From assembly GCA_030390025.1 (NCBI GenBank), contig CM059432.1, positions 98,582,001 through 98,646,000 on the forward strand: a DNA stretch of 64,000 nucleotides. Direction: 5' to 3'. Below, one piece after another: positions 39,713 through 63,968 of the stretch (its first letter is position 1; each line of letters opens with the position of its first letter). Below the pieces are notes generated by a model. It did not search any database. It was not told the DNA's origin and saw only the letters and a program-made list of their open reading frames with translations. The translations under genes were made by a program, and so were the position numbers. This DNA comes from Squalus acanthias (taxonomy: Eukaryota).

Positions 39713-39813
39713 GTAGAGTTCCAAACTTTTCTGAGTTTCTGAGAAAAATCACGGTCGATTACAACAATTCCGAGGTGCACGTGGAAAAACTGGAGTGACG
39801 CCATTTTGTCTGT

Positions 39814-42165
39814 TTACGCGGTGCTTTCATCGTGCATGCGCACGTAACGTTCTCGCCACTCTCCCGTGTTTTCGTTCTTGGTGAGGCGTTTGCCTCTCTT
39901 ACAATGCACGACCAATAAGTATATCACAATAAACACTTGGCATACAACTAAAATGTGGGAGGCTATTCTAATCCAGGAAGGCACTTCAATGTTGGTGAAC
40001 AGATCCCACCACGGTGGAATTACTATGTCCAGAATTTCTGTCCCTATCTCGACAGTCTTTTGTTCTAGGGTGTAAAAATGTTTTTGCGATACTGCGACGG
40101 CTTTCAAAAGCTTGGTGAGGTGTTCAGGGAGAGGGGGAATGAGGTATCCGAAATGCGCGACGAATCGCTGCAGGTCGGTGAAGTTCTCTTTTACTGTAAG
40201 ATGAACAGTGGATGATTCAGGGATCGGGACATATCGCTGTTGTGCTACTTGAACTTCCGCCCTGGGTTTAAAACAGAAACTGCTGTCACTCACCGGACAC
40301 CGGCTACGGTTTCCATGTTGGTAGTGTCGAGCTGCAGTGGTAACACAATATGTTCCACCCACGATGTATGCTACCTGCGGAGGCACATGATCTTGTGCCA
40401 TTGCCTCCATGGTGCAATTCATGGGCTTGGCGCCAGCCGTTCTGAACCCGCACTGTGGTGTTAAAAAGGCATTCAAGTGCTGGGGACACAGTATTATGTG
40501 TGCTCCCCGGCCACGACAACCAGAGAGATCTGTACCTGTCATCGTTTGCTCCCAGCGGATGACGTAAGGTGGAACCGCTGCATAGCGAATGTGGGCTCCC
40601 CCCTGAATGACACCAATGTTCTCTACCCGATACACCGGGGCGGGCTTTGCTGTGTCACCCAAAACCGGCATACGTAAAACTATACCCATGATGGTATGGT
40701 TTGATCGTCCGCAGTCCACGGGGACTGGGTATGCTTCTGAAGCTAGCCTGAGCTGGCACGGGCTTAATGCGTTCTGAAAAGGGTGTAGCGCCTGCAGGTG
40801 TTTGTTACTTATCCAGGACGGGACCAAACCTTGTTTTAAATCCTCCAAATTACTGCGGCCCTCGCCCAGTAACCACGCCCCGTAAAGCACGCACACCTTG
40901 TTCTGCGCAGCCTGATCGGACGCATTCCGATCTTCCCTGATCAGGGCATTTACCGTCCGCGCGTGTTTCTCCAGCTCAGCTATGATTTCTTTTAAATGGA
41001 GAGTCATGGCCTGGTCCTCGTGTAACCCAGACCCAACCACCTTATTTTCATCTGTGAGAATATTCTTTAATTGTGTTTTTAAGCCATTAATCTGGGTCTG
41101 CAGCTCCACGCTGTCTAGAGCGTTGACCACAGATGTACCTGCATTGAAAGCAGTGAACATGTAATTCACAACACCCCTTCTTTGTCTCCCCACCTGACCC
41201 AAAACTTCATGTGGTGCGGTGTACAAACTTGTTTTATCAATTTCCGCGAAATCGAACTCATAAAATTGCCTAAACATCTTGGTCAACAGGACCTGATATA
41301 ACTGTTCCGTCTCTTTGGGGCACCACTCCGGCAACCGCACCTCGGTGAGATTTAAAATCACCGAGGCCACCGCGTAATGTACCCCCTGAAATAGTATCTG
41401 GTCTGTAGGGACCAATACCAAACCATTCCCGGGTCCCTTACTGGTTTTTGGGCACCCTTCTTCCTTAGCTAGAACCACCGGAATTGTGGGCGGGGCCTTG
41501 CGTGGGCGCGTAATGAGTTCAGTGGCATTTACCGGGATCGGAGAGTATGGGGCCCCGCACCCCCTGGTGCTTACATCTCACCTCATCCCCTGCCCGTTAT
41601 CCTGCCATTGATTGATGAAAAATATGGAGATGCCTTTGGGGCAAACGTGCTTTTACCCCGACATACATACATAAATTCCCTCATCCGGTTCCCACCATTT
41701 GTCCCAACAGACTCTCACTTGTCCGTTTGTCCCCGTAATTGTCCGATGGGTATTATTACCCAGTCGCTCCCACTCGACTGAAGAGTTCCTCATGTTTTTG
41801 CTCAGCTTTCGCAGCCACCACCATCGGCTCAATGGGACATTCCCATTACAAGTCAAACAAATCCGTTTGCCGACGGTGACGCCGACTCTGGGTGCGATGA
41901 TCCTCACTTTGGGGCACATTAAAGAAGTCTCTTTGTAGGCAAAACCCGACGTACTGCAATACTCAGTGGAATTCGTTCCCAGCCATCCTGGCCACCTTCC
42001 CTTGTAGAAATAGGTGGTGGTCTCCTCAGCCTCTCGCCTTCCGGTCCCATCCACCGCGATGGGGGCCGTGTCCCCGGAGCATCCAAACACCACGACATCC
42101 TTGGTGCGGCCTCGATAGGCCAATCCACATCCGATTGCCGCGAGCACTACTAGAATTCGTTCCAT
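39814..42165 (-). pseudogene. env: ERV-A envelope gene with two in-frame nonsense codons
   Basis: Collinear with and same length (2352 bp) as ERV-B env; TCA>TAA at 41653-41655 and TGG>TGA at 41578-41580. Confidence 0.9.
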
Positions 42166-42456: not shown

Positions 42457-43500
42457 TCAAATTCTGTGAAGGCGGACACAAGCTTTTCCCAACGGTGGGA
42501 GGGCACTGACCCCTTCCTTTGATCTGCTGCAGCCTGTCGCTGCTGCGCTGGGACTGGGATCTCCCTGGGCTGCCTTGACCTTGAACTTGCGCCTGGGGGC
42601 GTACGGGGGACTTACCCACATCTTTCTGGGCTGGGGTGTCCGACCTGACCTACGGAGAACTACCGGGGGCAGGAACTCCAGGACTGACGGACTGGGTTTC
42701 GAGACTTCCTCCGTGGCGACCCGTGGTCCCACCACAGTCGTTGGCTCCGCCTCCCCTGACTCCGCCTCCCTGAACTCGGGATCTGCAGCTTGTGGCACCG
42801 CCCTACTTGGCCCAGTAGGCGGCCCTTCACTCGCAGTCACTACCTCCCTCGAGGGCAAGACGTTCAAGGCGGGCGACTCGGGCTCTGAGGCTTCCATCGC
42901 CACGCCCTGTGGTCCCACCACAGCGGCTGGCTCCGCCTCCCCTAGCTCCGCCCCCCTGCGTTCGGGACCTGCAGCTTCGGCCTCCACCCTGTGTGGATCT
43001 CTATCTGCAGCCCCTGTCTCCCCTATACCTGAATCGGGGGCGACCCTTTCGTCCTCCGATTCCAGCTCCTCTTCGCTTGTGTCACTATCTTGGTCGAGCT
43101 CCTCGAACTCTTCCTCATCTGACTCCCAAACCAAATAAAGGATCCTACATTTTGCTAGGATGTCCTCTCCCCTGATGCATGCTGCTTTGCCTGCCTGTGT
43201 GCCCTGTGGCCCTACCCGGGCCTGCGAGTCCCCACTCGCAGGTTTGGCCCCTGTGGTTGGCCCTTGTGCACCTGGCTTATACAGTTTACACTGATTAAAA
43301 TCCTCATTCTCCCTGCTTCTGGCTACCCTGTAGGCTGCTTTTATCTCTCTAAGCTGCCCTTCTAGCCCATCCATTTTCCCCATTAAACGGGCGTTCTCTT
43401 CCTGCAAGGCCTGCTCTTTTAACCTGGCCTCCTTACAGGAGACCCCCTCCTGTGCGTGTCTTTTAAAAGGACACAGGTAGGCAGGCTGTGCGGGCTCTAG
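42457..43500 (-). CDS. ERV-A readthrough ORF: Pol N-terminal stub + Gag-like coiled coil + integrase C-terminal tail
   Basis: Open and in frame after the gag TGA-CTAG: LEPAQPAYLCP, then EARLKEQ..AAYRVA, then NQCKLYKPGAQG.. homologous to the ERV-B Pol C-terminus. Confidence 0.75.
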   Translation of the reverse strand, partial: LEPAQPAYLCPFKRHAQEGVSCKEARLKEQALQEENARLMGKMDGLEGQLREIKAAYRVARSRENEDFNQCKLYKPGAQGPTTGAKPASGDSQARVGPQGTQAGKAACIRGEDILAKCRILYLVWESDEEEFEELDQDSDTSEEELESEDERVAPDSGIGETGAADRDPHRVEAEAAGPERRGAELGEAEPAAVVGPQGVAMEASEPESPALNVLPSREVVTASEGPPTGPSRAVPQAADPEFREAESGEAEPTTVVGPRVATEEVSKPSPSVLEFLPPVVLRRSGRTPQPRKMWVSPPYAPRRKFKVKAAQGDPSPSAAATGCSRSKEGVSALPPLGKACVRLHRI

Positions 43501-45306
43501 TCATTGGGTACTGGTGAACGGGGCTGCGGCATCTGCGGGGCCGGTAGCGACTGCCACACTTCCCTGCGAAATCATGAGGGTGCGCATGGCTCCCAACATT
43601 GATTCGATCGCATCGGGATGGATAGGTGCACCAGCTCCCCTATCAGAGGCAGGCGCCTGGGCTCGGACTGCGGGATTTTTATCCCTGGACTCCTTCCAAG
43701 GATTCCTGCAGTTCTTGCGCCATTGCCCTGTCTTTCCACATCCGAAACAAGCATTACTGGCCTGTGGGACGCGATTTCCCTCCTGATGCCACTCCTTTTG
43801 AGCCGGGGCTGTGGGCCGCGCCTCATGCAACTTTCCCTTAAGGGGACGTGCTCCCGCACTCCTGGTATTACGGTACCCTACCGTGAGTCGATTTAGGACC
43901 GACTCCTCTGTTGTGGCGGGGTTAGTGGGATCAAACCACGCTTTGGCCTGCTCCCTGACGGCTGGCAAACTGTTGGCTACCACACACCTGAGCCAATGAG
44001 TTAAACCGACACCGTCTATGCGGTGACGCGCTGGCGCGCCTGGGCAGCTACGTCGATATACTAGCCACAGCCTGTCGGCGAAAACCTTCGGGGGTTCTCC
44101 CTCCATCTGCACTGTTTGTCCCAATCTAACGAACGGACCTTCATCGTCCGCTCCCAACACTTCCAGGACCTCGTCCCTCAATTCCCCATAGGTATTATTT
44201 CCCCTCTTGCTCTCGTCTGAGAGACACTGAAGGATCGAGCTGTCTAATGAGAACAACAGCATTTTTGCTTTTTCCCCATCGTCGCAGCCGTTAATGGCTG
44301 CGGTTTGCTCTACATCCCTGAAATGTACGGAAGGGTCGTCTGACTCGGACAGCTTCCGTACGTGACTGATCATAACCCTCAGCTGGTGTGAGCTGTGAGG
44401 CAACACAAGCTGGTTGAGGAGATCCCCCTCTGCCCCATCTGCTCCGTTCGGGCCCCTCTTGATACCCGTGACTGGACACAACGGTCCCGGCTTCACTTCT
44501 ACCTCAGGGGGCTCTTCCTCTACTTCTACCACTTCCTTCCTCACCCAGGTTGCCGAATAGCTGGGTGGCGCGGAGGGCACAGTGGCAAATACCTCCTCTG
44601 TTTTGTTCGGTGGGGATTTCTGAAATTCCCCACCCACCAGCGGCTGGTGTGCTGCCGGGCTGATAAGGCACACCATGCCGTGCGCTTTATTCAGGGCCTC
44701 TTTAAGGTTCCCTATCTCTCTTTGGCAGACGCTGTGATCGGCCCCCTGATGTTTATCCTCGAGGGCCATCTTATATGCCGCCCTAACCCCCGTTAAGCTC
44801 TCTTCCTGGGCTTTTATTTGGGCAGCTAGGCGGGCACATCGTTCCTTTATTCTGCCCTCATTTAACTTTGCCTCAGTGACCTGGCACTCGAGGTAATCTA
44901 TTTTTGCCTCATGGTGGTTGGCGACTAACTGGCGTTCTTGATGCAACGCATTTAAAGACGCGATGAGCTGCTGCCCCCCCGCGACCTTCTCGTCCATTTC
45001 CACCTCTAAACCCTTGATCTGCGCTGCCTGCGCTAAGATGACCTGGTCCAAAAGCTGGACTTGTCTTTTATAGCACATCAGCCAGACCGCTTTCTCTACT
45101 GTTTTTTTATGTTCCTTGCTACCTGTCCACCTCACGGCTGCCTCTAGTGGACGCTTATCCACCAGCAGGTCACTTATCCATTTCTTAGTCAAATTCACTT
45201 TTCCAAACACATAATCTGCTATTCTCTCTTCCATAACATTTCACCCATTCATACCAGGGTCTAACACATTATATTCTCGCTGCCAGTGTCCCTTCGTGGT
45301 CGCCAT
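43501..45306 (-). pseudogene. gag: ERV-A Gag; stop at codon 22, open for 577 aa from 45234
   Basis: Homologous to ERV-B Gag; TGA at 45241-45243 where ERV-B has CGA; zinc knuckle His replaced by Gln (CFGCGKTGQWRKNC); PSAPPSY present. Confidence 0.88.
45288..45305 (-). other. Primer binding site, tRNA-Arg type (ERV-A)
   Basis: TGGCGACCACGAAGGGAC, 5 nt after the 5' LTR; complementary to a vertebrate tRNA-Arg 3' end GTCCCTTCGTGGTCG-CCA (tRNA sequence recalled, not looked up). Confidence 0.85.
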
Positions 45307-45310
45307 TAGC

Positions 45311-46960
45311 TGTAAGGGGTGACCTGCGGCTCTGTGCTTAGCCTGGGTGCTAGTGCGGGGTTAGGCCTTGTTGCCTGTTCTGGTCTCCAGCCAGCCTGAT
45401 AACACTAGACACCTGTGAGTGGTTCGACCCACTCGCCCTTACGGTTCTGACACTGGACTTAGGTGCGAGAGCAATAATGCAGAGAAAGACTCAGGTAGAC
45501 CCGGTTGAATAGTGCGAAATGGAAAATCTTTATTGCATATTATTCAAGATTACGAGATACATGTCATAAGCACAGATTAACGACAGTACAATTTTACACA
45601 CAGTTATGAAACTAATTTTAGGGAAACGAGGAGCGCACGACACATCGTAGAAGGGGACACACATTATAATTATCCTTAAAACTTAAACCCTCCCCTATCA
45701 ATACCTGTCCTAATCTAGATTTGTAGGATCGAGACTCATGCTCACCACTCGTGATAACTCGGAGAATTCCAAAACTCTGCTCGGATGTTTTACCGCAGCA
45801 CCTGACTATCCACGTGTTGATCAGGGGTCTCTGTACCCCACTTGTTTACTCGTTTCTGCTCCGGCTAGCAGGCTGGACCGTCTGCTGTCATGAAGATCTG
45901 TGTTGCCCTTGGAGTTCGGACACCACTCGAAAAAGAGTCTTCCTGTGCCCTACAGCAGTTGTCTGTAGAACTCAAAGAAGGGTCTTCCTAGGCCAGTTGT
46001 GGAGTAGCCGATAAAATTCAAAGAAGTGTTTATTCGACTTACAGGCGCGGTCGGGGCTTACTGACCGTGGCGATGCGTATTGTCGTCTTCTTCTCTTCTC
46101 ATCTCATCTCATCTCATCTCATCTCCTCTCGGGCCTTCAGTTCCAACACCGTTTACCGACTTCTCGGGATGGTGCGCCCGCTTCCAGGCCTCACAGCCCG
46201 GTTCTCCACAGATCTTCGCGGCAAGCCACGAGGTTGTTCCTAGCGGATCAGAGTCCAGAGCCGTCAGGCAAGAGAATAAAAGTTCAGCAGCCTTCCAGCG
46301 AGTCAAAGCAGCAAGAGCAGCAAGCCAAAGATGGACGGTTGTACCTTACAGTTATAGTGCTGTAATTCCTCTTTTCCCGCCCAATCTTAATGTCTATCTT
46401 TTGTCAGGTTTTTGGCGCTCAAACTTCTTGTATGGGGTGATCTCAGTCTTTAATGGGTTTCGGTGATACTTGTAACTGTCTGAGTACCCGTTAATATTTC
46501 TCCCATTGTGGAACCGGCTAGTAGTCTCCCTGGAGGGGTTTTGGGGCTTCCAAATGCTTGCTGTAAGTACCCGCAAACGGCTCTCTCATCGTAGAGTCGT
46601 GGGGATTTTGCATATTAATGTCTTTGGATGGGTCCTTGATCGCTCAGTACAATAGCCCTTGTTTGCACCCGGGAGACCGATTCCAGTATTTATGTTTAAA
46701 ATGCAAACCCATCATGTCTTGTCAATTATCTCAAATGTGCTGAGTCCTGTATGATCTTGCACAAATGTTTATTGGAACGCCATCTTGTCTGCCCACTGAA
46801 AGTCTAGAACTTTCTGCCACGAGGCGTGGTGGCCATTTTACAGGCTGTTTGTGTCCGTTTTGAAACCTGACAGCATTCTGCTGAAATAAAGCTGTTTGTA
46901 CGAAACTTTATGTCTCCTTCTTATTTTTTTTTAAATCGCGTTAATTTTGCGAATTCTACA
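45311..46960 (-). repeat. ERV-A 5' LTR (1650 bp)
   Basis: TGTA..TACA ends; AATAAA on - at 45529-45534; (TCTCA)n tract. Confidence 0.95.
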
Positions 46961-49166: not shown

Positions 49167-51047
49167 ATGGAGAGGGTGAGAGAACGCGCTCATCGCTTCA
49201 CCGAGCGGGCCTTGGATGCTCTGGTTGGTGCGGTGGAGCGCAGAAGATGTATGCTCTTCCCTGAGAGTGGCAGGAGGCCTTTGCCACGCGAGTTCAGAAG
49301 AGTGTGGAGGGAGGTGGCTCAGAGCGTCTCCTCCAGGAGCATGGTGCCCAGGACCCATACTCAATGCCGCAAAAAGTTCAACGACCTCACTCGGGTCGTC
49401 AGGGTGAGTGGCTTTTTCTCAATACCTCTCCATCCCTCCATCTCAACCTCACTCTATGGCCAGAGGGTCTTAAAACCCCAATGCACAACACTCATCCAAC
49501 ACCTATGGCCCTTTCATGAAACACACACACACATTCCACACTTTGCATACAGTAAGGGCTATTCACCTATGGGAGGCACATCAGGCAAGACCATGGCTGC
49601 ATACAGTAAGGGCTATTCACCTATGGGAGGCACATCAGGCAAGACCATGGCTGCATACAGTAAGGGCTATTCACCTATGGGAGGCACATCAGGCAAGACC
49701 ATGGCTGTATATTTACTCAGATGCTGTCCTTTTTCTTACAGGCCAAGCTGGCGCATAATCGGAGGCAGCAGCAACGGACAGGTGGAGGGCGGCCTCAGCT
49801 GCAACCCCTCAGCGATCTTGAGGAGCGCGTCCAGAGGATTCTGGCAAGCCGGGTGATCGGTCCCGTCGCCACTGGAGACGCCGACCCCGTTCTGGACAGC
49901 AATGGTAAGGTCATCACCTTTTTGTCCTCTGTCCTTCCACTTGTCCCTCACAACACCAGCCTTTGACACTTTCAATCCAACTTGCTAACTCGCTGCACTT
50001 ATTCCTCCCTTACTGCCACCCTGTCCTCACGCTAAAGCCACTCTTGTACCTCCCTGCTTTCAGATGGTGATTCACCAGCTGAGGAGACGGGCCCTGAAGC
50101 TGCCACTGGGAGTGATGCTGCAGCCGAGGAGGAAGAGGAAGCCGGAGCATCAGTGCCACCCTCTCCCGAGGAAGCCCATGCCCACACTGGGAACACGCCT
50201 TCCCTGGAGGGGAGCAGGGGGGAAGGGTCTGATGAGGGTGAAGCTCCAGGACCCAGCGGGCTGCATCAACGCCATGGGGGGGGGGGGTAGGGAAGAACGG
50301 GGGCCTTCTCCCCAGAGGGAGAGTATGCCAGACACTCCTACCGCAATGGACGCAGAGGAGGAGCGGCTGATCGCAGAAATGAACACCCAGGCGGTGGGCA
50401 TGCACACTGAGCTCATGGGTGCAGTGGGAAGGGTGCCCAAATGCATTGAGTCACTGGCAAGGAGTGTGGAGCACTTCGCTGTAGCACAGGCGGATGCCAC
50501 ACTAACGCTTAGTGCTGCAATTCAGTCACTGGCTGCCGTGATCCCATCTCTGACTGCTCTCATACAGACTCAGATTGAGGCCACGCGAGCACAGACTGCT
50601 GCCAACCTCGATGGTTCGTGCACATGTCCCCGGGGCTGTCACCGCGCCGCAGCAGGCCAGCAATCTGTTCTCCAGCAGATTGCTCCGGATGCTGAAGTGC
50701 TGCCCCGTGGGAGTGCCAGTGTGTCGGGCGAGCAGGGAGTTGCTGTCCTCTCTCACGATGACAGCATTCCCGCTGCCAACACTGTCACTTCTCCACTGCA
50801 CTTGCCACCGCCTGTAGGACAGACTGCTGTCGCCCATGCAGAGTTGGTGCAGTCTGCAGCCGGGCCCTCCAGGCCCAGAACTGGTCGAGGCCGTCCTTCA
50901 GGGGCATCTGCAGTGTCAGGGTCTGACGAGCAGCAGCCTTCCACCAGCCTTGCTGCAGCCACTGAGGTCCCATTACGGAGGAGCAGTAGGGTTAGAAGGG
51001 GGGAAGTGCGCAAGGGAAGGAGATCACCCTCGAAGGGCAAAAAGTAG
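49167..51047 (+). CDS. Harbinger Myb/SANT-like protein; exons 49167-49403, 49742-49904, 50064-51047; apparent frameshift in or near the G-run at about 50280
   Basis: MERVRERAHRFTERALDALV..WREVAQSV..RTHTQCRKKFNDL; canonical GT-AG junctions. Confidence 0.75.
49544..49705. repeat. 3 x 54-bp perfect tandem repeat in Myb intron 1
   Basis: tgcatacagtaagggctattcacctatgggaggcacatcaggcaagaccatggc repeated three times. Confidence 0.95.
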
Positions 51048-51437: not shown

Positions 51438-53032
51438 TGTAAGGGATTCTCTCCTGACCCTGCGTGTCTCGTAGCCTGTGAGATTCACGCGGCTCTGTGC
51501 AGCCTGTATGTCAGTGCGGGTCTAGGCCTGGTCTCCAGCCAGTCTGGGAACACTAGACACCCCTGTGAGTGGTTCGAATCACTCTCCCTTACGGTTCTAG
51601 ACACTGGACTTAGATGCGAGAGCAGTAATGGAGATAAAACTCATGTAGACTTGGTTTGAACGGTACGAAATGGAAAATCTTTATTGCATGATACTTAAAA
51701 TTATGAAATACATGTCATATGCACAGATTAATGACAGTACAATCTTACAAACAGTTATAATCACTCTTAGGGAAACGAGGAACGACCAGCACAACGTAAA
51801 TAGGGCACACATTACAAATATCCTTAATCTTTAAACCCTCCCCTATCAATGTCTATCCTAAACTAGCTTCGTAGGATCTCGAGACTCATGCTCACCACTC
51901 GTAATAACTCGGAGAAATCCCGAATAGCTGATCGGATGTTTTTCACCGCAGCACCCACGTGTTGGTCAGGAGATCTCCTGGTCCCACTTGTTTACTGCTT
52001 TTGCTGCTCGGTCAGTCGGCTGGACCGTCCGCTGTAGTGAAGACCTCTGTTGGTTGGATACAAGGTATGGTGGAGCACCGTTGTCAATATCGCTGATACG
52101 ATGTGTTTGCACAGTCCAGTTATCATCGATGCAATATGTCTTGTTAAAGAAGAAAACTTCCTGTCGAGAAGACTTGGCTGATCGACCTACAGGCGCGGTC
52201 GGGATTTACTGACCGTGGCGATGGATAAGGTCTTCTTCTCTTCTCCTCTCATCTCATCTCATCTCATCTCATCCCGGGCCTTCGGTTCCGCTGCCAGCTA
52301 CCAACATAGGTCTTTGCAACAGTCTTTTACACAGGAGCAGCCACGATGATAACAGCAACAAGCGGCAAGAGTCAAGAACACGAGGCAAGAGTCAAGAGCA
52401 AGAGAGAGAATGGACGGTTTGGGGCCTGCAATTATAGTGCACAGTTCTTCCGTTTCCCGCCCAACTACAATGTCCATTCTTTTGTTTAAGGTTTGGCGCC
52501 CAAAATGTCCTGTATGGGTGATCTCTGTCCTTAATGGGTTTCGGGGCTACTCCTGAATGTTTGAGTACCTGCTAATATTTCTCCCATTGTTAAATCGGTC
52601 GGTGTTCCCCCTGGAGGGGTTTGGGGCTTCCAAGTGTCCTGTATAACTACCTGCTAACGGCTCTCTCATCGTAGAGCCGTTGGGAGTTTACATATTAATG
52701 TCCTTTGGATGGGCCTTTGATGGCTTTCCTTTGTACCTGGGAGACCGATTCCAGTATCGATGTTTATACTGTAAACCCATAATGTCCTGTGTATTGTCTT
52801 CACTGTGCTGAATCGTTATCGATCCTGCAAAAAAAAAATGTTTATTGGAACGCCATCTTGTCTGCCTGTTGAAAAGTCTAGAATGTTCTGTCACGCGGTG
52901 CGGCGGCCATTTTACAGGCTGCTTGTGTCCAATTTAAACCTGACAGCATTCCGCTGAAATAAAAGCTGTTTTGAACGAAACTTTGTGTTTTCTCCTTATT
53001 AAAATGAAATCGCGATAATTGCGAATTCTACA
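51438..53032 (-). repeat. ERV-B 3' LTR (1595 bp)
   Basis: Direct repeat of 62373-63968; I found one substitution and one A-run indel; AATAAA on - at 51680-51685. Confidence 0.97.
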
Positions 53033-53456: not shown

Positions 53457-55808
53457 TTACACTGCGCTCTCATCGTGCACGCGCACGTAACGTTCTCGCC
53501 ACTCTCCCGTGTTCTCATGCTTGGTGAGGCGCTTGCCTCTTTTACAATGTATGAACAAAAGGTATACTACAATAAACACTTGACAGACGACTAAAATGTG
53601 GGAGGCTATTCTGACCCATGAGGGCACTTCAATATTAGTGAACAGGTTCCACCACGGTGGAACCACTATGTCCAAAATGTCTGTTCCAATTTCGACGGTT
53701 TTCTGTTCTAAGGTATAAAAATGCTTTTGTGACACCGCGACGGCTTTCAGAAGTTTGGTTAAATGCTCAGGGAGAGGGGGAATGAGGTATCCAAAATGCG
53801 CGACAAATCGCTGCAAGTCGGTGAAATTCTCTTTTACTGTGAGATGAACAGTGGATGGTTCAGGGATTGGGATAATTCGCTGTTGTGCTACTTGAACTTC
53901 AGCCCTGGGTTTAAAACAGAAACTGCTGTCACTCACCGGACACCGGCTACGGTTTCCATGCTGGTAGTGTTGCGCTGCAGTGGTAACACAATATGTTCCA
54001 CCCCCGATGTATGCTACCTGCGGAGGCACATGATCTTGTGCCATTGCCTCCATGGTGCAATTCATGGACTTGGCGCCAGCCGTTCTGAACCCGCACTGTG
54101 GTGTTAAAAAGGCATTCAAGTGCTGGGGGCACAGTATTATGTGTGCTCCCCTGCCACGACAACCAGAGAGATCTGTACCTGTCATCGTTTGCTCCCAGCG
54201 GATGACGTAAGGTGGAACCGCTGCATAACGAATGTGGGCTCCCCCCTGAATGACACCAATGTTCTCTACCCGATACACCGGGGCGGGCTTTGCTGTGTTG
54301 CCCAAAACCGGCATGCGTAATACTATTCCCATAATAGTATGGTTTGAACGTCCGCAGTCCACGGGGACTGGGTAAGCTTCTGAAGCTAGCCTGAGCTGGC
54401 ACGGACTTAATGCGTTCTGAAAAGGGTGGAGCGCCCGCAGGTGTTTGTTACTTATCCAGGACGGGACCAAACCTTGTTTTAAATCCTCCAAATTACTGCG
54501 GCCCTCGCCCAGTAACCACGCCCCGTAAAGCACGCACACCTCGTTCTGCGCAGCTTGATCGGATGCATTCCGATCTTCCCTGATCAGGGCATTTACCGTA
54601 CGCGCATGTTTCTCCAGCTCTGCTATAATCTCTTTTAAGTGTAGTGTCATGGCTTGGTCCTCGTGCAGACCCGACCCTACCACTTTATTCTCATCTGTAA
54701 GAATATCCTTTAACTGTGTTTTTAAACCATTAATCTGGGTCTGCAGCTCCACACTGTCTAGAGCGTTGACCACAGATGTCCCTGTGTTAAAAGCAGTGAA
54801 CGCATCGTTCACCAAACCCCTTCTTTGCCTCCCTACTTGGTCCAAAACTTCCTGCGGTGCGGTGTATAAACTTGTCTTATCAATTTCTGCAAAATCAAAC
54901 TCGTAAAATTGCCTGAACATCTTGGTCAACAGGACCTGGTACAACTGTTCCGTCTTTTTGGGGCACCACTCTGGTAACCGTACCTCAGTGAGATTTAAAA
55001 TCACCGAGGCCACCGCGTAATGTACCCCCTGAAATAGTATCTGGTCTGTGGGGACCAGTACCAAACCGTTCCCGGGTCCCTTACTAGTTTTAGGGCACCC
55101 TTCTTCCTCAGTTAGAACTACCGGGATCGTGGGCGGGGCTTTGCGTGGGCGCGTAATGAGCTCAGTGGCATTTACTGGGATCGGAGAGTATGGGGCTCCG
55201 CACCCCCTGGTGCTCGCATCCCACCTCATCCCCTGTCCGTTATCCTGCCACTGGTTAATAAAGAATATGGAGATGCCTTTGGGGCAAACGTACTTTGACC
55301 CCCACATACAAACATAAATCCCCTCATCCGGTTCCCACCATTTGTCCCAACAGACTTTCACTTGTCCGTCTGTCCCCGTAATTGTCCGATGGGTATTATT
55401 ACCCAGTCGCTCCCACTCAACCGAAGAGTTCCTCATAGTTTTGCTCAGCTTTCGCAGCCACCACCATCGGCTCAATGGGACATTCCCACTGCAGGTCAAA
55501 CAAATCCGTTTGCCGACGGTGACGCTGATCCTGGGTGCGATGATCCGTACTTTGGGGCACATTAAAGAAGTCTCTTTGTAGGCGAACCCCGATGTGCTGG
55601 AATACTCCGTTGAGTTCGTTCCCAGCCATCCTGGCCACCTTCCCTTGTGGAAATAGGTGCTGGTCCCCTCTGCCTTCCGTCTCCCGGTCCCATCCACCGC
55701 GATGGGGGCCGTGTCCCCGGAACATCCAAACACCACGACATCCTTGGTGTGGCCTCGATAGGCCAATCCACATCCGATTGCCACGAGCAATACTATAAGT
55801 CGTTCCAT
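53457..55808 (-). CDS. env: Envelope glycoprotein, 783 aa: signal peptide, Ig-like domain, class I F-like fusion protein
   Basis: Signal MERLIVLLVAIGCGLA; furin site RQRR at 327-330; fusion peptide and heptad; Cys-rich region; TM ILVVCQVFIVVYLLFI; many NxS/T sequons; YVRV in the tail. Confidence 0.92.
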   Translation of the reverse strand: MERLIVLLVAIGCGLAYRGHTKDVVVFGCSGDTAPIAVDGTGRRKAEGTSTYFHKGRWPGWLGTNSTEYSSTSGFAYKETSLMCPKVRIIAPRISVTVGKRICLTCSGNVPLSRWWWLRKLSKTMRNSSVEWERLGNNTHRTITGTDGQVKVCWDKWWEPDEGIYVCMWGSKYVCPKGISIFFINQWQDNGQGMRWDASTRGCGAPYSPIPVNATELITRPRKAPPTIPVVLTEEEGCPKTSKGPGNGLVLVPTDQILFQGVHYAVASVILNLTEVRLPEWCPKKTEQLYQVLLTKMFRQFYEFDFAEIDKTSLYTAPQEVLDQVGRQRRGLVNDAFTAFNTGTSVVNALDSVELQTQINGLKTQLKDILTDENKVVGSGLHEDQAMTLHLKEIIAELEKHARTVNALIREDRNASDQAAQNEVCVLYGAWLLGEGRSNLEDLKQGLVPSWISNKHLRALHPFQNALSPCQLRLASEAYPVPVDCGRSNHTIMGIVLRMPVLGNTAKPAPVYRVENIGVIQGGAHIRYAAVPPYVIRWEQTMTGTDLSGCRGRGAHIILCPQHLNAFLTPQCGFRTAGAKSMNCTMEAMAQDHVPPQVAYIGGGTYCVTTAAQHYQHGNRSRCPVSDSSFCFKPRAEVQVAQQRIIPIPEPSTVHLTVKENFTDLQRFVAHFGYLIPPLPEHLTKLLKAVAVSQKHFYTLEQKTVEIGTDILDIVVPPWWNLFTNIEVPSWVRIASHILVVCQVFIVVYLLFIHCKRGKRLTKHENTGEWRERYVRVHDESAV

Positions 55809-56092: not shown

Positions 56093-59000
56093 TTAAATCC
56101 TGAGAAGGCTGCTGCGAGCTCTTCCCGACGGTGGGAGGGCACTGACCCTTTCCTCTGATCTGCCGCAGCCTGTTACTGCTTCGATGTGGCCTGTCTCTAC
56201 CCGGGTTATCTTAACCTGAAACTTACGCCCTGGGGCAGCCTGTGGACCTGACCACATCTTCCTGGGCTGGGGTACTCTGCTTGACCTACGGGGAATTGCT
56301 ATGGGCGGGGGCTCCGTGACGGACGGACCGGGTCCCGAGACCTTCAACGGGATGACCTGGGGTTCCATCACAGGCGCCAGCCCCGCCTCCGCTGACTCCG
56401 CCTCCCTGACCTCGGGGCTGGCAGTTCGGGGCCCCGCCCTGCTCGGTCCAGCAGGCGGCCCTTCACTCGTGAACTCTGCCTCCCCTGAGGACTGGACGTT
56501 CAAAGCGGGCGGCCACACCTCTGGGAACCACATAGCGGCTGGCCCGGCCTCCTCTAGCTCCTTCCTCCTGTTGTCGGGACCTGCAGCTTGTGTGTCCACC
56601 CCGTATGGATCTCTACCTAGCGGCCCCAATCCTCCCAGACCGTTCCTCAGGAACCACCCGTCATCATCACTATGCTCATCTGCACTATCCTCATCTGACC
56701 AGGGTACCCTGGGGTCCTCGTCATCTAACCCCCAACTCCAGAAAAACGCTGCATGATCGTCCGGGATGTCCCTTCCCCTGATGCAAGCTGCTACGCCTGC
56801 CTGTGTGCCTTGTGGTCCTACCTGGGGCTGTGTTTTCCCATTGGCGGGATTTACCCCTGTAGTTTTCCCTTGCGCACCCGGCTGGTACAGTTTACATTGG
56901 TTTATGTGGAACCACTTAGTGCGCCGAGGTACTTTTACGGCGTAAACCATGGGACTCGCCTTGTCTACAATGTTGTAGGGTCCCATATACAGTGGTTCCA
57001 GACTCCCTACTCTGGCGTAGTTTCTGACCATAACCTGGTCTCCTACTTCCCACTCCCGCGTTTTGCGGGGTTCCAGCAACAAGCGATTGCCCTGATGCTG
57101 CCTTCCCATGTTCCCAGCCGCCTGCTCATAAACTTGCTTCAGGCGCTCCAAGAGAGTTTGGGCGAACTTGTCCCTGCTGATCTCTTGAAGCTGACCCTCA
57201 GTGAGCACCGGGGCTAGCACATGGGTGGGGGTTCGCATGAGCCTCCCAGTCATTACCTCGTGCGGGGAGTACCCCGTACTTTTTGACTGACTGGCCCGGA
57301 CCCCCATGAGGACTAAAGGCAGAACTTCCGCCCATTTTTGGGGCGAGTTCCTAGTCTCTTTCCTCAATTTCTCCTTCAGGGTCCGGTTCATACGTTCAAC
57401 AATCCCGGATGACTGGGGATTGTGTGCTACGTGCCACTTCCCTTCAATGCCCAAAAGCATGAGGGTGTTCTGCATCACCTGGCCGGTGAAATGACTCCCT
57501 TGGTCTGACTCCACAAAACGGGGGAGTCCCCACCGCGAGAACACTTCCCGGACCAAGATTTTTGCTGTACCCAGTGCCGTAGCTGTTCGACAAGGGAAGG
57601 CTTCCACCCACTTGGAAAACACATCCACCAGGACGAGGCAGTACTTATAACCTCCCTGGGTGGTGGGCAGGGGTCCTATATAGTCGATCTGTATCGACTG
57701 CCATGGTCCCTCTACCCTTCTTACGTGTCCCATGGGCACCTTCCTTTTCTGGGGGTCTGGGTTATTTGCAGCGCACACAAGACAGTTTGCACAGAACTCG
57801 CGGACTTGTTCCCTGAGCCCTGGCCACCATCCCGCTTGCTCTACCCGTTGCCAGGTAACCTCGGGCCCGGGGTGCCCTGCCCCTGGTCCCTCGTGAGCCA
57901 ACTGGAGGAATTCCCTCCTGTGCTGCTGCGGCACAACCCACTGCTCCTCGCGGAACAGCATGCCTTCCTTAACTGAGAGGGTTGCCGTACTGTACGGACC
58001 TTCTACCTGCCTCCCCTCAGCAATCGTTTTTAGGACTGCTTTTAGGGCGGGATCCTGGGCTTGGACGGTCTTAAGGTCTAGGGGCAATGCTACCCTGGTG
58101 TTCCCGGTATTCCCGTCCCCGCCTCGGACCGCTGCTATGGGTCCGGTTCTATAGGGGTTCCAGAAAGTACCGTCGTGGGCACCCTCCCTGGCTAGCGCAT
58201 CCGCCTGCCGGTTGCCCTCCCCACGGGGCTCTGTGGAGGAGTGAGCTTTCACCTTATGGATGAAAATCTCCCCTTCCTCCCCTACTGCTGCTGCTAAGAT
58301 CTTCTCCAGCAAGGGCTTTACCGTTAAAGGTCGCCCGTCCGCGGAGGTGTATCCACGGCGGGACCAAATGGCCAGGTATTCCGTACACGAATTGCAGGTG
58401 AACATACTGTCCGAGCAAATCGTGTATGGGGTTGGGAAAATGTCTGGGTGGGTTACCACGTACACCACGGCAGACAGCTCAGCCTGCTGCGCGCTCATGG
58501 TGCTAGGGAGCTTGATCGCCAGGGCAAGGTCTGCCGCAGGGTCATAAACTCCACACCCTGTGAGTCGCTCGCCAGCAGATACTGTGCTAGACCCATCAAC
58601 ATAAATCTCGCGCCCAGTGGGATGTATCCCGGCCCGTAAACCTATGTTGACGTCCCACACCCCCTCCACCGAACACCGGTGGGCTGTACCGGGGTATACC
58701 AAATTGGCCGCAAGCCTGGGCTCGCAAAGACCTTTTACTCTGATGTCCAACTGGGAGAGAAGAAGGGTCCAACGCGCAATGCGTGCGCTGCTTACGGTCC
58801 CGTCTTTAATCCTCCCATCCAGAAGCATCTTAGTTGGTGTGTGATGTGTGAGGAGAGTGATGGGAGAGAGCCCTGTGAAGATCGCTGATCTTTTCACAGC
58901 CCAATGCGTGGCTAAAAGGTGCCTTTCGCAATTGGAAAAACTTCTCTCCACATCCGTTAATACCCTGGATGAATAGACAACCGGCCTCAGCTTGCCGTGA

Positions 59001-60556
59001 CGCTCTTGGAGCAGTACGGCGCTTAAGCTGTCTCCGCTGGCAGCTACCTCCAGGAAAAACTCCTTCCCCCCATCTATGGCCCCTAAGGCTGGCGCGGTCT
59101 GCAGATCCCTTTTTAACTTCTCGAAGGCTGCTTGGCAGCCCTCGTCCCAAAGCCACTCTACCCCCTTATGGAGGAGTCGGAGGAGCGGCGCCGCTGTGGC
59201 CGCATAATCCTCGATAAAATCCCTGCAGTAACCGGTCAGTCCCAAGAAGGACCTCACACCCCTTACGTTGTTGGGAATCGGTAATTCTTGCACCGACTCC
59301 CTCCTGGCTTTGTCTATAGCTCTTTCCCCAGCGCGTAGGGTCAGTCCCAGGAATTTTACTTCCTGCTGACCGATACGTGCTTTCTTTGGGTTTACTTTAA
59401 AACCCTTTCTCGCTAACAGCTCCAATAACTCGTCCAGTAGTGGTCCGTGCTCCTCCCTTGAGTCCGTAAATAGGAGCAAATCATCCACATACTGTACTAT
59501 CTGATTGGGCTGACTGAACTCCTTTAAACTTCCTGCCATACACTGGTGAAAAATACTGGGGCTATTGTGGAAACCCTGTGGCAAGCAGTTCCACGTGTAC
59601 TGTTGCCCTTTAAACGTAAAGGCAAACTTGTACTGGTCCTCTCGCCGCAGCGGGATGGACCAAAAACCGTTCGAGATATCCAGCACCGTGAACGTGGTCG
59701 CGGACGCTGGGATGCTCCCTATTAGGTCAGCAACTGCTGCTACTGTGGGCGCGCAGGCGGGGATGTTACTGTTAAGGACTCTGTAGTCCACCGTGGCTCT
59801 CCACGAATTATCCGGCTTCCTAACCGGCCATAATGGGGAGTTCACGTGTGTGGCTATCGGCCTCAACACGCCCTGCTGCACCAAGGAAGACATTGCTGCC
59901 TCCATATCGGGTTCTGCTTCTTTGGGGAAGTTATACTGCTTTTGGGGTCGGGTCATGGGGTCCCCATCTACGCTGACCTCAAACCCGACCACCCTCCCAC
60001 AATCGTGCTTGTGGGTTGCAAACGCGTGCATATTATCTGTCACGTACGTTTGCATGTCCGTTGGGACATCTGCGACCATAAGCCTGAGGTCGTAGCCTCC
60101 GGATGGCTGTACGGTACACAGGACCCCTGTTTCTTCCTCCCCTTGAATCACCATTACCTCGCCTTTTTCACCTTTAGCCCCCCAGAGACAGTGATTTCTG
60201 AGGTCCACGAGGATCCCGTGTCCCGCTAGCAGATCGGACCCGAGAATACCTCTTCCACCCCCCTTTTGCCATGCCATCAGTATACACTTCCACTTAAGGC
60301 GAAGTGTCCCTAAACGAATGGATAGCGGGAGGGAAAACGTGCCAGCCTGTTCTTTCCCTGTGAACCCTGCTAGCGTGAATGGGACCTTGGTAGATAGCGG
60401 CGAGTCAAAAGGGTCATCTGTATGGATTATGGTGCAAGAAGCTCCCGTGTCCAACAAATAACTGCCCTTTTGTTTCTCTACCTCCATCTCCACCACAGGT
60501 CGCCTCCACGCATCATAGCTGAGCGGACACAGGTAGACGGGCTGTGCTGGTTCTAG
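56093..60556 (-). CDS. pol: Pol (PR-RT-tether-RNase H-IN plus long C-terminal tail), in frame with gag
   Basis: LLDTGAS; LPQGFHNSP; YVDD; degenerate RH (LEVAAS..VVYSSR); RH (YVDGS, AELSA, SDS, GNRQAD); HHCC, QIDYIGP, SDQGSHF, VERMNRTLK, GPY. Confidence 0.96.
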   Translation of the reverse strand, partial: LEPAQPVYLCPLSYDAWRRPVVEMEVEKQKGSYLLDTGASCTIIHTDDPFDSPLSTKVPFTLAGFTGKEQAGTFSLPLSIRLGTLRLKWKCILMAWQKGGGRGILGSDLLAGHGILVDLRNHCLWGAKGEKGEVMVIQGEEETGVLCTVQPSGGYDLRLMVADVPTDMQTYVTDNMHAFATHKHDCGRVVGFEVSVDGDPMTRPQKQYNFPKEAEPDMEAAMSSLVQQGVLRPIATHVNSPLWPVRKPDNSWRATVDYRVLNSNIPACAPTVAAVADLIGSIPASATTFTVLDISNGFWSIPLRREDQYKFAFTFKGQQYTWNCLPQGFHNSPSIFHQCMAGSLKEFSQPNQIVQYVDDLLLFTDSREEHGPLLDELLELLARKGFKVNPKKARIGQQEVKFLGLTLRAGERAIDKARRESVQELPIPNNVRGVRSFLGLTGYCRDFIEDYAATAAPLLRLLHKGVEWLWDEGCQAAFEKLKRDLQTAPALGAIDGGKEFFLEVAASGDSLSAVLLQERHGKLRPVVYSSRVLTDVERSFSNCERHLLATHWAVKRSAIFTGLSPITLLTHHTPTKMLLDGRIKDGTVSSARIARWTLLLSQLDIRVKGLCEPRLAANLVYPGTAHRCSVEGVWDVNIGLRAGIHPTGREIYVDGSSTVSAGERLTGCGVYDPAADLALAIKLPSTMSAQQAELSAVVYVVTHPDIFPTPYTICSDSMFTCNSCTEYLAIWSRRGYTSADGRPLTVKPLLEKILAAAVGEEGEIFIHKVKAHSSTEPRGEGNRQADALAREGAHDGTFWNPYRTGPIAAVRGGDGNTGNTRVALPLDLKTVQAQDPALKAVLKTIAEGRQVEGPYSTATLSVKEGMLFREEQWVVPQQHRREFLQLAHEGPGAGHPGPEVTWQRVEQAGWWPGLREQVREFCANCLVCAANNPDPQKRKVPMGHVRRVEGPWQSIQIDYIGPLPTTQGGYKYCLVLVDVFSKWVEAFPCRTATALGTAKILVREVFSRWGLPRFVESDQGSHFTGQVMQNTLMLLGIEGKWHVAHNPQSSGIVERMNRTLKEKLRKETRNSPQKWAEVLPLVLMGVRASQSKSTGYSPHEVMTGRLMRTPTHVLAPVLTEGQLQEISRDKFAQTLLERLKQVYEQAAGNMGRQHQGNRLLLEPRKTREWEVGDQVMVRNYARVGSLEPLYMGPYNIVDKASPMVYAVKVPRRTKWFHINQCKLYQPGAQGKTTGVNPANGKTQPQVGPQGTQAGVAACIRGRDIPDDHAAFFWSWGLDDEDPRVPWSDEDSADEHSDDDGWFLRNGLGGLGPLGRDPYGVDTQAAGPDNRRKELEEAGPAAMWFPEVWPPALNVQSSGEAEFTSEGPPAGPSRAGPRTASPEVREAESAEAGLAPVMEPQVIPLKVSGPGPSVTEPPPIAIPRRSSRVPQPRKMWSGPQAAPGRKFQVKITRVETGHIEAVTGCGRSEERVSALPPSGRARSSLLRI

Positions 60557-62368
60557 TCATGGGGCACTATTAGACGGTCCTGCGGCACCTACGGGGCCGG
60601 TTGCGACCGCCACCTGTCCACGCGCATTCAAAACCATCTTGCGCATGACTCCTAACACTGCTTCGAGGTCGTCGGGAGGGGTGGGTGCCTTGGCTTCCTT
60701 AGCCGGGACAGGCGCCTGGGTTCGGACCGCGGGATTTTTATCCTTGGAATCCTTCCAAGGGTTCCTGCAGTGCTTGCGCCAGTGCCCTGTCTTCCCACAC
60801 CCGTAACAGGCATTACTTGCCTGTGGGGCGCGATTACCCTCCTGATGCCACTCTCTTTGAGCCGGGGCTGCGGGTCGTACCTCATGTACTCTTCCCTTAA
60901 AGGGACGTGTCGTCATACCCCTTATGTTACGATAACCTAACGTGAGTCGATTCAAGACCGACTCTTCCGTAAGGTTGAGGTCATTGGGATCGAACCAGGC
61001 TTTTGCCTGCTCTCTAACGGCTGGTAAACTGTTGGCTATGATGCACCTAAGCCAATGAATTAAAGCGGCGCCTTCCACATCTTCGCGCTCGGGCGCACCC
61101 AGACAGCTGCGCTCATATACGGGCCACAGCCTGTCGGCAAAAACCTTCGGGGGTTCTCCCTCCATCTGCACTGTCTGTCCTACTCTAGCAAACGGACCTC
61201 CGTCGTTCGCCCCCACTACTTCTAGGACCTCATTTTTCAATTCCTCATAACTTTTATTACCCCTCTTGCTATCGCCTGAGAGACACTGAAGGACCGAGCT
61301 ATCTAACGAGAACAGCAGCATTTTTGCTGTCTCCCCATCATCGCAGCCGTTGATGGCTGCGGCTTGCTCAACTTCCCTGAAATGTACGGAAGGGTCGTCT
61401 ATCTCGGTCAGCTTCCTTACGTGGTTTATCATGGCTCTCAGCTGATGTGAACTGTGAGGCAACACCAGCTGTCCGAGGAGATCCCCCGGTTCTTCCCCAC
61501 CGTTTCTGCTTGGGCCCCTTTTAATACCCGTTACTGGATACAACGATCCCTTTTCTACCTCCTTTTCAACGGGCTCTTTTGCTTCTTCCGTTGCTTCCTC
61601 CCTAACCCAGGTTTCTGAATAGCTGGGTGGCGCGGAGGGCGCAGTGGCTACTACTTCTTCTGCTTTACTTGGTGGGGAATTTCTAAATCTCTCATTTACT
61701 AGCGGCTGGCGTGCCGACGGATTAATAAGGCACACCATGCCGTTCGCATTATTCACGGCCTTTTTGAGGCTCTCTATCTCTTTTTCGCAGGCGCTATGGT
61801 CGGCTCCCTGAAACTTATCCTCAAGGGCCAACTTATACGCCGACCTAACCCCCATTAAGCTCTCTTCTTGAGTTCTTATCTGGGCAGCTTGACGGTTACA
61901 TCTTTCCTTCATCCTACTCTCGTTTAATTTTGCTTCAGTGATCTGGCACTCGAGATACTCTACCCTTGTTTTAAGGTAACTGGAGACTTCCTGGCTTTCC
62001 TGGCGTAACTCATGTAAACTCTTAATGAGCGCCTCCCCTCCAGAAACCTTCTCCTCCATTTCCTCCTCTAACTGCTTGATTCGAGCGGTTAGCGCTGTAT
62101 TGGTCTGGTTTGAAATCTGAACCTGCCTTTTGTAGCACATAAGCCAGACTGCTTTCTCAACTGCCTTTTTATGCTCCTTACTATCAGTCCACCTTTCAGC
62201 TGCCTCTAGTGGGCTCTTATCCGCTAACAATTCGCTTATCCACTTTTTCGTTAGATTAACCTTTCCAAATACGTAATCCGCTATCTTTTCCTGCATCACA
62301 TTTCGTACAGTCATTCCAAAATCTAACACACTACCCTCTCGCTGCCAGTGTCCTGCCGCGGTCGCCAT
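60557..62368 (-). CDS. gag: Gag, 603 aa (coiled coil, PSAPPSY, capsid-like region, one CCHC knuckle)
   Basis: First ORF after the LTR; CYGCGKTGHWRKHC; ends in TGA-CTAG. Confidence 0.93.
   Translation of the reverse strand: MATAAGHWQREGSVLDFGMTVRNVMQEKIADYVFGKVNLTKKWISELLADKSPLEAAERWTDSKEHKKAVEKAVWLMCYKRQVQISNQTNTALTARIKQLEEEMEEKVSGGEALIKSLHELRQESQEVSSYLKTRVEYLECQITEAKLNESRMKERCNRQAAQIRTQEESLMGVRSAYKLALEDKFQGADHSACEKEIESLKKAVNNANGMVCLINPSARQPLVNERFRNSPPSKAEEVVATAPSAPPSYSETWVREEATEEAKEPVEKEVEKGSLYPVTGIKRGPSRNGGEEPGDLLGQLVLPHSSHQLRAMINHVRKLTEIDDPSVHFREVEQAAAINGCDDGETAKMLLFSLDSSVLQCLSGDSKRGNKSYEELKNEVLEVVGANDGGPFARVGQTVQMEGEPPKVFADRLWPVYERSCLGAPEREDVEGAALIHWLRCIIANSLPAVREQAKAWFDPNDLNLTEESVLNRLTLGYRNIRGMTTRPFKGRVHEVRPAAPAQREWHQEGNRAPQASNACYGCGKTGHWRKHCRNPWKDSKDKNPAVRTQAPVPAKEAKAPTPPDDLEAVLGVMRKMVLNARGQVAVATGPVGAAGPSNSAP
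62350..62367 (-). other. Primer binding site, tRNA-Arg type (ERV-B)
   Basis: TGGCGACCGCGGCAGGAC, complementary to a tRNA-Arg(TCG) 3' end GTCCTGCCGCGGTCG-CCA (tRNA sequence recalled, not looked up). Confidence 0.85.
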
Positions 62369-62372
62369 TTTC

Positions 62373-63968
62373 TGTAAGGGATTCTCTCCTGACCCTGCGT
62401 GTCTCGTAGCCTGTGAGATTCACGCGGCTCTGTGCAGCCTGTATGTCAGTGCGGGTCTAGGCCTGGTCTCCAGCCAGTCTGGGAACACTAGACACCCCTG
62501 TGAGTGGTTCGAATCACTCTCCCTTACGGTTCTAGACACTGGACTTAGATGCGAGAGCAGTAATGGAGATAAAACTCATGTAGACTTGGTTTGAACGGTA
62601 CGAAATGGAAAATCTTTATTGCATGATACTTAAAATTATGAAATACATGTCATATGCACAGATTAATGACAGTACAATCTTACAAACAGTTATAATCACT
62701 CTTAGGGAAACGAGGAACGACCAGCACAACGTAAATAGGGCACACATTACAAATATCCTTAATCTTTAAACCCTCCCCTATCAATGTCTATCCTAAACTA
62801 GCTTCGTAGGATCTCGAGACTCATGCTCACCACTCGTAATAACTCGGAGAAATCCCGAATAGCTGATCGGATGTTTTTCACCGCAGCACCCACGTGTTGG
62901 TCAGGAGATCTCCTGGTCCCACTTGTTTACTGCTTTTGCTGCTCGGTCAGTCAGCTGGACCGTCCGCTGTAGTGAAGACCTCTGTTGGTTGGATACAAGG
63001 TATGGTGGAGCACCGTTGTCAATATCGCTGATACGATGTGTTTGCACAGTCCAGTTATCATCGATGCAATATGTCTTGTTAAAGAAGAAAACTTCCTGTC
63101 GAGAAGACTTGGCTGATCGACCTACAGGCGCGGTCGGGATTTACTGACCGTGGCGATGGATAAGGTCTTCTTCTCTTCTCCTCTCATCTCATCTCATCTC
63201 ATCTCATCCCGGGCCTTCGGTTCCGCTGCCAGCTACCAACATAGGTCTTTGCAACAGTCTTTTACACAGGAGCAGCCACGATGATAACAGCAACAAGCGG
63301 CAAGAGTCAAGAACACGAGGCAAGAGTCAAGAGCAAGAGAGAGAATGGACGGTTTGGGGCCTGCAATTATAGTGCACAGTTCTTCCGTTTCCCGCCCAAC
63401 TACAATGTCCATTCTTTTGTTTAAGGTTTGGCGCCCAAAATGTCCTGTATGGGTGATCTCTGTCCTTAATGGGTTTCGGGGCTACTCCTGAATGTTTGAG
63501 TACCTGCTAATATTTCTCCCATTGTTAAATCGGTCGGTGTTCCCCCTGGAGGGGTTTGGGGCTTCCAAGTGTCCTGTATAACTACCTGCTAACGGCTCTC
63601 TCATCGTAGAGCCGTTGGGAGTTTACATATTAATGTCCTTTGGATGGGCCTTTGATGGCTTTCCTTTGTACCTGGGAGACCGATTCCAGTATCGATGTTT
63701 ATACTGTAAACCCATAATGTCCTGTGTATTGTCTTCACTGTGCTGAATCGTTATCGATCCTGCAAAAAAAAAAATGTTTATTGGAACGCCATCTTGTCTG
63801 CCTGTTGAAAAGTCTAGAATGTTCTGTCACGCGGTGCGGCGGCCATTTTACAGGCTGCTTGTGTCCAATTTAAACCTGACAGCATTCCGCTGAAATAAAA
63901 GCTGTTTTGAACGAAACTTTGTGTTTTCTCCTTATTAAAATGAAATCGCGATAATTGCGAATTCTACA
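62373..63968 (-). repeat. ERV-B 5' LTR (1596 bp)
   Basis: TGTA..TACA ends, followed by the TSD CCTC. Confidence 0.97.
63367..63434 (-). promoter_or_regulatory. Candidate LTR core promoter: TATAA plus two E2F-type sites / GC box
   Basis: TATAA (63367-63371, - strand), TTTCCCGC (63388-63395), TTTGGCGC (63427-63434); same arrangement in the ERV-A LTR. Confidence 0.5.

Follow-up and report, generated by a model that had tools for sequence, protein, structure and literature searches.

We analysed a 64,000-nucleotide stretch of the Squalus acanthias genome (assembly GCA_030390025.1, contig CM059432.1, positions 98,582,001 to 98,646,000 of the forward strand), hereafter the window, which carries an endogenous retrovirus (ERV) with an open env reading frame (53457..55808) encoding an envelope protein (Env) of 783 amino acids (aa). 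All proviral features described below lie on the minus strand and their coordinates are positions in the window. The Env begins with a probable signal peptide (aa 1–17, 55758..55808), as suggested by its short hydrophobic N-terminus. A conserved segment of 67 aa follows (aa 18–84, 55557..55757), which contains C29, C84 and the sequence WPGWLG and is modelled mostly with a predicted local distance difference test score (pLDDT) below 50. The next stretch, aa 85–185 (55254..55556), is a putative immunoglobulin (Ig) superfamily V/I-like domain, identified by motif, Pfam, profile and structure matches. A Pro/Thr-rich linker (aa 206–237, 55098..55193) then leads to a fusion core of the F type (class Ib; aa 238–730, 53619..55097) and to a transmembrane helix (about aa 734–753) with a short tail (53460..53609).

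The Ig V/I-set residue pattern reported in the original prediction is borne out by the translation of the minus strand, with every residue it named in place: C103, C106, a WWW at 115–117, C153 and a DEGIYVC motif ending in C167. The key codons are those of C106 (55491-55493), W117 (55458-55460) and C167 (55308-55310). The C106 to C167 distance of 61 is a V-type spacing, the F-strand motif spans D161 to C167, and sequons occur at N127 and N137 within the domain. The generic Ig pattern C-x(8,15)-W-x(30,65)-[DE]xGxYxC is rare by chance, arising in 16 of 20,000 shuffles of aa 18–237 and in 34 of 20,000 shuffles of the whole Env. Altogether the arm has eight conserved ectodomain cysteines (29, 84, 103, 106, 153, 167, 175 and 203); a C106–C167 disulfide is predicted from the sequence alignments with JAM-A and CRTAM given below, and C103–C153 and C84–C175 are probable further pairs. 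The linker, also foreseen in the original prediction, separates the domain from the F-like part; 11 of its 32 residues are Pro or Thr and it carries a sequon at N213.

Several kinds of comparison point to an Ig fold. Pfam Ig_3 was matched in all 11 aligned relatives (best E 0.0014), although every one of these matches fell under the curated cut-off. For a profile search of the PDB we used an Ig-only alignment (111 positions), since an earlier alignment that included a chimeric gene model had returned mostly zinc fingers. Among 177,635 PDB sequences the top match was the V domain of CRTAM (E=0.0076, profile positions 11–103 of 111), with the cysteines and tryptophan in register and C106 and C167 falling on the B- and F-strand cysteines; an alignment of the single sequence with JAM-A places C106 and C167 on the same two strand positions. 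Neighbours in the ESM Atlas were Ig clusters (top score 0.90), and nine of the ten best family matches belonged to one Ig clan. An AlphaFold model of aa 18–212 built from 15 sequences is all-beta and helix-free, with its strands in Ig order, while modelling the entire Env from its sequence alone reached a pLDDT of 33 and gave no useful information. The Foldseek matches listed for the former model are entries with antibody, T-cell receptor or other Ig-superfamily chains, at E 0.03 or weaker, and the 50 chains listed by VIA-align out of 48,161 are all Ig-type by title (Z 6.8–7.7, root-mean-square deviation 1.9–3.0 Å). For the anticipated beta-sandwich, the modelled strands and the type of structural match are favourable, at low pLDDT and with moderate scores. 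Taken together, these comparisons make it very probable that Env aa 85–185 adopt an Ig fold, which we class as V/I-like.

The Env body behind this domain is an F-type (class Ib) fusion protein, with core homology, furin site, probable fusion peptide and C-terminal transmembrane helix all present, as the original prediction of an F-like fusogen had it. When 37 Env bodies were combined into a profile, it matched foamy virus Env (8OZH) at E=1.3e-4; the ESM Atlas neighbours of aa 236–735 are Baculo_F and Fusion_gly clusters (0.92), and one fragment matches Baculo_F at E 0.0011; the window Env itself gave no match to Pfam PF00523. The furin-type site RQRR (aa 327–330, 54819-54830) is followed by a probable fusion peptide.

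The Ig domain is under purifying selection. A second provirus in the window, ERV-A (37057-46960, with a 4-bp target duplication), carries a copy of the domain at 41611..41913 that is 92% identical and keeps all eight arm cysteines and W117, in agreement with the conservation claimed earlier, in an env that is 94% identical overall and has in-frame stops at codons 171, within the domain copy, and 196. The ratio of non-synonymous to synonymous change (dN/dS) over the domain relative to ERV-A is 0.14 (dN 0.03, dS 0.25), and relative to the older copies L081, L082, L025 and L029, for which dS is saturated, it is 0.13, 0.07, 0.09 and 0.08. Of the ten rows compared, three gave no value and two others had infinite dS. 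The pre-Ig segment gave ratios of 0.13–0.29. Across 39 young copies the distinct changes within the domain numbered 15 at synonymous and 2 at non-synonymous sites, a count biased by the choice of these copies as top protein matches, and all eight arm cysteines and W117 were invariant. In the 15-row alignment of relatives C103, C106 and W117 are present in every row and C167 in 13.

Relatives of the Env were found in sharks, a skate, frogs and coelacanth, and the stretch between their N-terminus and the start of the core varies. Arms of the window type occur in Rhinoraja (72–73% identity), Pristiophorus (64%) and a whale shark fragment. A second type of Ig-like arm is found in P0014, which UniRef names 'Ig-like domain-containing protein', and in L071, L080 and L083. 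Two frog Envs (P0020 from Pelodytes and P0048 from Mantella) have an Ig-like motif by eye and one profile score in support, and Pfam returned nothing for these two proteins or for the arm of L039. The frog Envs also carry a basic RxKR site before the Ig-like arm, reminiscent of the foamy virus leader peptide, and the Mantella cluster has 16 members. A different domain occupies aa 14–128 of P0036 (Logan protein): it is V-set-like and cysteine-less (Pfam V-set, E=0.0015), matches CEACAM and SLAM-family chains at E 0.24 or weaker, and is a candidate for a separate capture; the nearest core relative of P0036 is the armless P0038. Elsewhere the same slot holds four kinds of Cys-rich module, and in P0038 and P0049 it is empty. 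The host genome alone contains at least five other F-type Env families (L071–L086) with different arms: besides the second Ig-like type (L071, L080, L083), L075–L078 have a Cys-rich module of 79 aa, L079 has one of 63 aa, the arm of L073 is 145 aa long and contains CxxC, and L072 and L074 have short arms. Although the Cys-rich arms have a similar CxxC, cross-profile tests gave no link between them and Ig. A scan of viral contigs found no relative, and a word search with the Env profile returned close relatives only. In four shark gene models from public databases (P0004, P0005, P0006 and P0041), pieces of this env are joined to Niban, zinc-finger, cadherin and FBXO15 host genes; these are probably annotation chimeras.

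Homology among the Ig-like arms is weakly suggested by their sequences. With the profile of the window family, P0014 (7.4 bits) and P0020 (8.2 bits) each scored above all 300 of their shuffles, the only two of 14 targets to do so; in the reverse direction the figures were 8 of 300 and 24 of 300, and hhalign between arm modules gave probabilities below 2%. We also built a tree of 14 cores, without an outgroup and after dropping 7 of 21 rows that were near-duplicates, short or long-branched. Arm labels were assigned after the first tree was seen. Ig-type arms lie on both deep branches, their monophyly is rejected (approximately unbiased test, p=1e-48), and at least three state changes are needed. 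The most economical account is that the Ig arm was ancestral and was later lost or replaced.

On these grounds we propose that the Ig V/I-like beta-sandwich makes up most of the N-terminal arm of an F-type Env. Cleavage by furin at RQRR would leave this arm on the surface subunit, and the Pro/Thr stalk would hold it outward, where the Ig domain would bind a cell-surface protein and so supply what is missing from a bare F scaffold, a head for attachment or receptor binding. It would take the place of a separate attachment protein: no further large open reading frame able to encode one, and no accessory reading frames, are evident in the element. The domain itself would be old within the Env family and probably host-derived, and would have been lost or replaced in sister lineages. 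We put the probability that the arm sits on the surface subunit and binds a cell-surface protein in place of an attachment protein at roughly 0.6. The argument for receptor binding draws on the position of the domain, the stalk, the constraint on its sequence and the exchange of modules in its slot, whose content varies from family to family in the manner of host-range modules.

Two other functions can be considered. The Ig domain could be genuine but serve chiefly for immune mimicry or as a decoy, by engaging an inhibitory or adhesion receptor of leukocytes or by shielding the fusion core, with receptor binding residing in the core. The nearest weak matches are indeed immune and adhesion Ig proteins (CRTAM, JAM-A, CD8a and CD79b), armless F-type Envs exist, and the fold search of BFVD, which returned nothing at E<=0.001, has herpesvirus and poxvirus membrane and cytokine-binding proteins among its weak matches. 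However, in the limited search described below the domain showed no recognisable similarity to any single host protein, which we would expect mimicry usually to need, and unrelated small Cys-rich modules in the same slot of sister families are better accommodated by an attachment slot; the layout speaks more for attachment than for immune mimicry, which we regard as unlikely. A ligand-free role as structural cap or chaperone stabilising the prefusion trimer would agree with strong purifying selection, with the lack of excess amino-acid change and with a rigid arm of the kind that eight conserved cysteines suggest. Against such a cap stand the Pro/Thr linker between domain and core and the empty or exchanged slot in relatives whose cores can still be aligned, and we consider it a slimmer prospect.

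Two further explanations concern what the domain is and where it came from. If it were a viral beta-rich, Cys/Trp-rich domain resembling Ig by chance or convergence, one would understand why all scores stay under curated or strict thresholds and why the composition is rich in Trp and Cys with a non-canonical pattern of three cysteine pairs. Against this, methods of four kinds converge on Ig in one shared register, the motif appears in 16 of the 20,000 arm shuffles, and the distant relative P0014, independently named Ig-like by UniRef, exceeds all 300 shuffles with its 7.4 bits against the family profile; chance or convergence is therefore quite improbable. That one particular shark Ig-superfamily exon was captured recently would have published counterparts in the SIRP IgV and in the nectin3 of CrocERV31 (PMC4299795). 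It is nonetheless very improbable for the present element, since the domain is common to the ray-side Rhinoraja and the shark Pristiophorus, Ig-like modules stand on both deep branches of the core tree, and the limited search of longer proteins described next yielded ERV-derived matches alone.

A number of results weigh against the attachment reading or the fold and ancestry on which it builds. Pfam Ig_3 scores 16.4 bits (E=0.013) on the window Env against a cut-off of 30, missing the curated threshold, and two non-Ig ArfGAP1 chains (E 0.018 and 0.63) are among the weak PDB profile matches. The AlphaFold model has a mean pLDDT of 47.5, with 49–72 over the Ig part. Foldseek gave no match at E<=0.001 and VIA-align no Z of 8 or above, lower values possibly reflecting merely a common arrangement; as most VIA alignments begin at model residue 14, the segment upstream of the domain may partly join the sandwich. 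Each line of fold evidence is thus moderate, none is decisive alone, and we have judged them together. The two successes among 14 targets and the hhalign values do not establish a single origin of the Ig-like arms, and the armless loki Envs, P0038 and P0049 indicate that the core can exist without an arm. Finally, a limited search with the family profile among longer proteins (8,000 scored) gave six matches, all ERV-derived. The host Ig-superfamily donor envisaged in the original prediction was accordingly not recovered, and the best PDB match remained the one at E=0.0076; the domain probably derives ultimately from a host Ig-superfamily gene that is no longer recognisable.

The provirus that carries this env is bounded by a 5' long terminal repeat (LTR; TG...CA, 62373..63968) and a 3' LTR (51438..53032) that are 99.9% identical, with a 4-bp target-site duplication. 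Its gag reading frame (60557..62368) encodes a weak CCHC zinc knuckle. Its pol (56093..60556, also delimited as 56093-60487; protease, reverse transcriptase (RT) with YVDD, tether and RNase H, integrase) lies in frame with gag behind a single TGA, which is followed by CTAG (60550-60560); we take TGA-CTAG to be a readthrough-type context, and gamma-like retroviruses usually use TAG. Past the integrase, pol runs on for some 250 low-complexity residues rich in Pro, Glu and Gly (56093 to about 56900), with internal repeats of about 160–190 bases. The primer-binding site (62350..62367) is complementary to the 3' end of the host tRNA-Arg(TCG) and is overlapped by the first ATG of the gag frame (62350-62368). 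The two proviruses differ in primer site (about 45289-45306 in ERV-A), and only that of the first was matched to tRNA-Arg(TCG). On host contig C26, at about 39.0–42.2 Mb, long tandem arrays of a 1.6-kb unit contain tRNA-Arg(TCG) and tRNA-Ser(GCT) genes, and the tRNA 3' pattern has 422 exact matches genome-wide.

The element is a very young, many-copy, recently multiplying ERV: all 57 scored matches in the host genome, from 12,909 first-look candidates, are full length, 99–100% identical and stop-free, and 39 of 40 fetched copies differ on average by 1.4%. ERV-A, whose LTRs are 97.6% identical counting gaps (15 mismatches), retains gag and env, with pol reduced to a 3' tail of 294 aligned residues, and looks like a pol-less, helper-dependent subfamily. 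Other repeats in the window are a DDE_Tnp_4 transposase fragment, a Myb/SANT-like reading frame, presumably Harbinger-type, and reverse-transcriptase fragments of long interspersed nuclear elements (22942-23466, 49167-49856 and 30025-34278).

The element had been given the label loki, which its RT does not support. Compared by eye over 132 positions with the alignment in the supplement of PMC7947760, the RT is identical to that of snakehead retrovirus (SnRV) at 69 positions (52%), to that of MuERV-L at about 52 and to that of Loki-Sau at about 51 (~39%). The alignment with SnRV is gap-free and the two have the motifs LDISNGFWSI, QQYTW, LPQGFH and QYVDD in common, while the loki motifs CPFGY and PLSRWPM are absent from the window RT in this by-eye alignment. 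Loki elements are reported in none of six chondrichthyan genomes (PMC7947760), SnRV-like ERVs are reported in elephant shark (CmiERV lineage I, PMC4422223), and SnRV-like ERVs form the clade Huo (PMC6001957). From the RT sequence and these distributions the element is probably SnRV-like and not loki.

The joint reading that we would draw from these results is tentative, and we think it possible but doubtful as a whole: SnRV-like retroviruses of sharks, rays, frogs and coelacanth would use an F-type Env with an exchangeable N-terminal head slot, filled ancestrally by a host Ig-superfamily adhesion domain. A cysteine-less CEACAM/SLAM-like V domain would have taken over this slot at least once, and in other lineages small Cys-rich modules would have replaced the Ig domain or the slot would have been emptied. 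If that is true, and with loki and foamy Envs also being F-type, the F scaffold would be the ancestral retroviral Env, and capture of host Ig for receptor binding would have evolved independently on two fusion machineries that are unrelated. An F-type fusogen normally depends on an attachment protein encoded separately or on a large receptor-binding domain (RBD) of viral type. A compact host-type Ig head on an F core, in a recently multiplying family, would illustrate how receptor binding can be acquired by a bare F scaffold, with parallels in coronavirus spike and in gamma-type Env. Families with Ig-like, Cys-rich and very short arms coexist in one genome, so that comparison there can address how receptor-binding modules originate and are exchanged, and the association of an F-type core with an SnRV-like pol bears on which type of retroviral Env is ancestral.

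Ig heads on retroviral Envs are already known, and the statement in the original prediction that no such fusion existed was too broad. In murine leukaemia virus, feline leukaemia virus and EnvP(b)1 the RBD is a modified Ig variable (IgV) fold that precedes a proline-rich region, and a SIRP IgV has been captured by an alpha-like Env (Hotzel, bioRxiv 10.1101/2024.03.17.585361). What appears new is an Ig head on an F-type Env. In a literature search outside which lay most subscription papers, the Repbase entries and the bioRxiv supplements, no Env of the F type, of loki or of the SnRV-like group was found described with an Ig domain, and term look-ups in PMC7947760, PMC13524379, PMC9040795, PMC13709493, PMC12583693, PMC12193657, PMC11521997, PMC11089739 and PMC4422223 likewise gave none. 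The domain is not standard in published loki Envs: in 22 of 23 the core begins right after the signal peptide and one is N-truncated, whereas the window Env has an arm. The loki Env of Wang and Han (PMC7947760) is likewise F-like with signal peptide, RxxR site, fusion peptide and transmembrane helix; its core start, 'GP..G.VL', is similar by eye, and loki and the window element both have a dual RNase H, a trait also present in other retroviruses. For SnRV-like Envs neither an Ig domain nor an F-type fold is described in the available parts of PMC6001957 and PMC4422223, and the SnRV tail is 136 aa long as against about 30 aa in the window Env.

The nearest structural precedents lie on either side of this combination. 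On the fusion side, F has been described as a minimal scaffold to which a receptor-binding module can be added, either N-terminally (coronavirus spike) or in the form of an insert (foamy Env) (PMC11468914). The window Env has its fusion core in common with foamy Env, paramyxovirus and pneumovirus F and coronavirus spike, and like spike it carries its extra module at the N-terminus; it differs from F, which has no RBD, and from foamy Env, whose RBD is a novel-fold insert before the furin site. Its Ig domain is additional and contiguous, unlike the discontinuous Ig-fold domain II within the class Ib core. On the receptor-binding side, gamma-type RBD-C and the SIRP-like RBD resemble the window Env in starting with an IgV-like domain, to which a proline-rich region and the remainder of Env are joined, and their modules have been swapped between Env lineages as in the window Env family. 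Those heads, however, sit on orthoretroviral gamma-type Envs and ours on an F-type core; RBD-C lacks the B–F disulfide, which is predicted for the window domain; and the SIRP donor is identifiable, while none was found for the window domain. In CrocERV31, a crocodilian ERV4 and a retrovirus outside classes I and II, env is replaced by nectin3 (PMC4299795), an Ig-superfamily adhesion protein that occupies the env position. There the whole nectin3 is present and about 76% identical to that of the host, whereas the window Env combines a single, highly diverged Ig-like domain with a fusogen.

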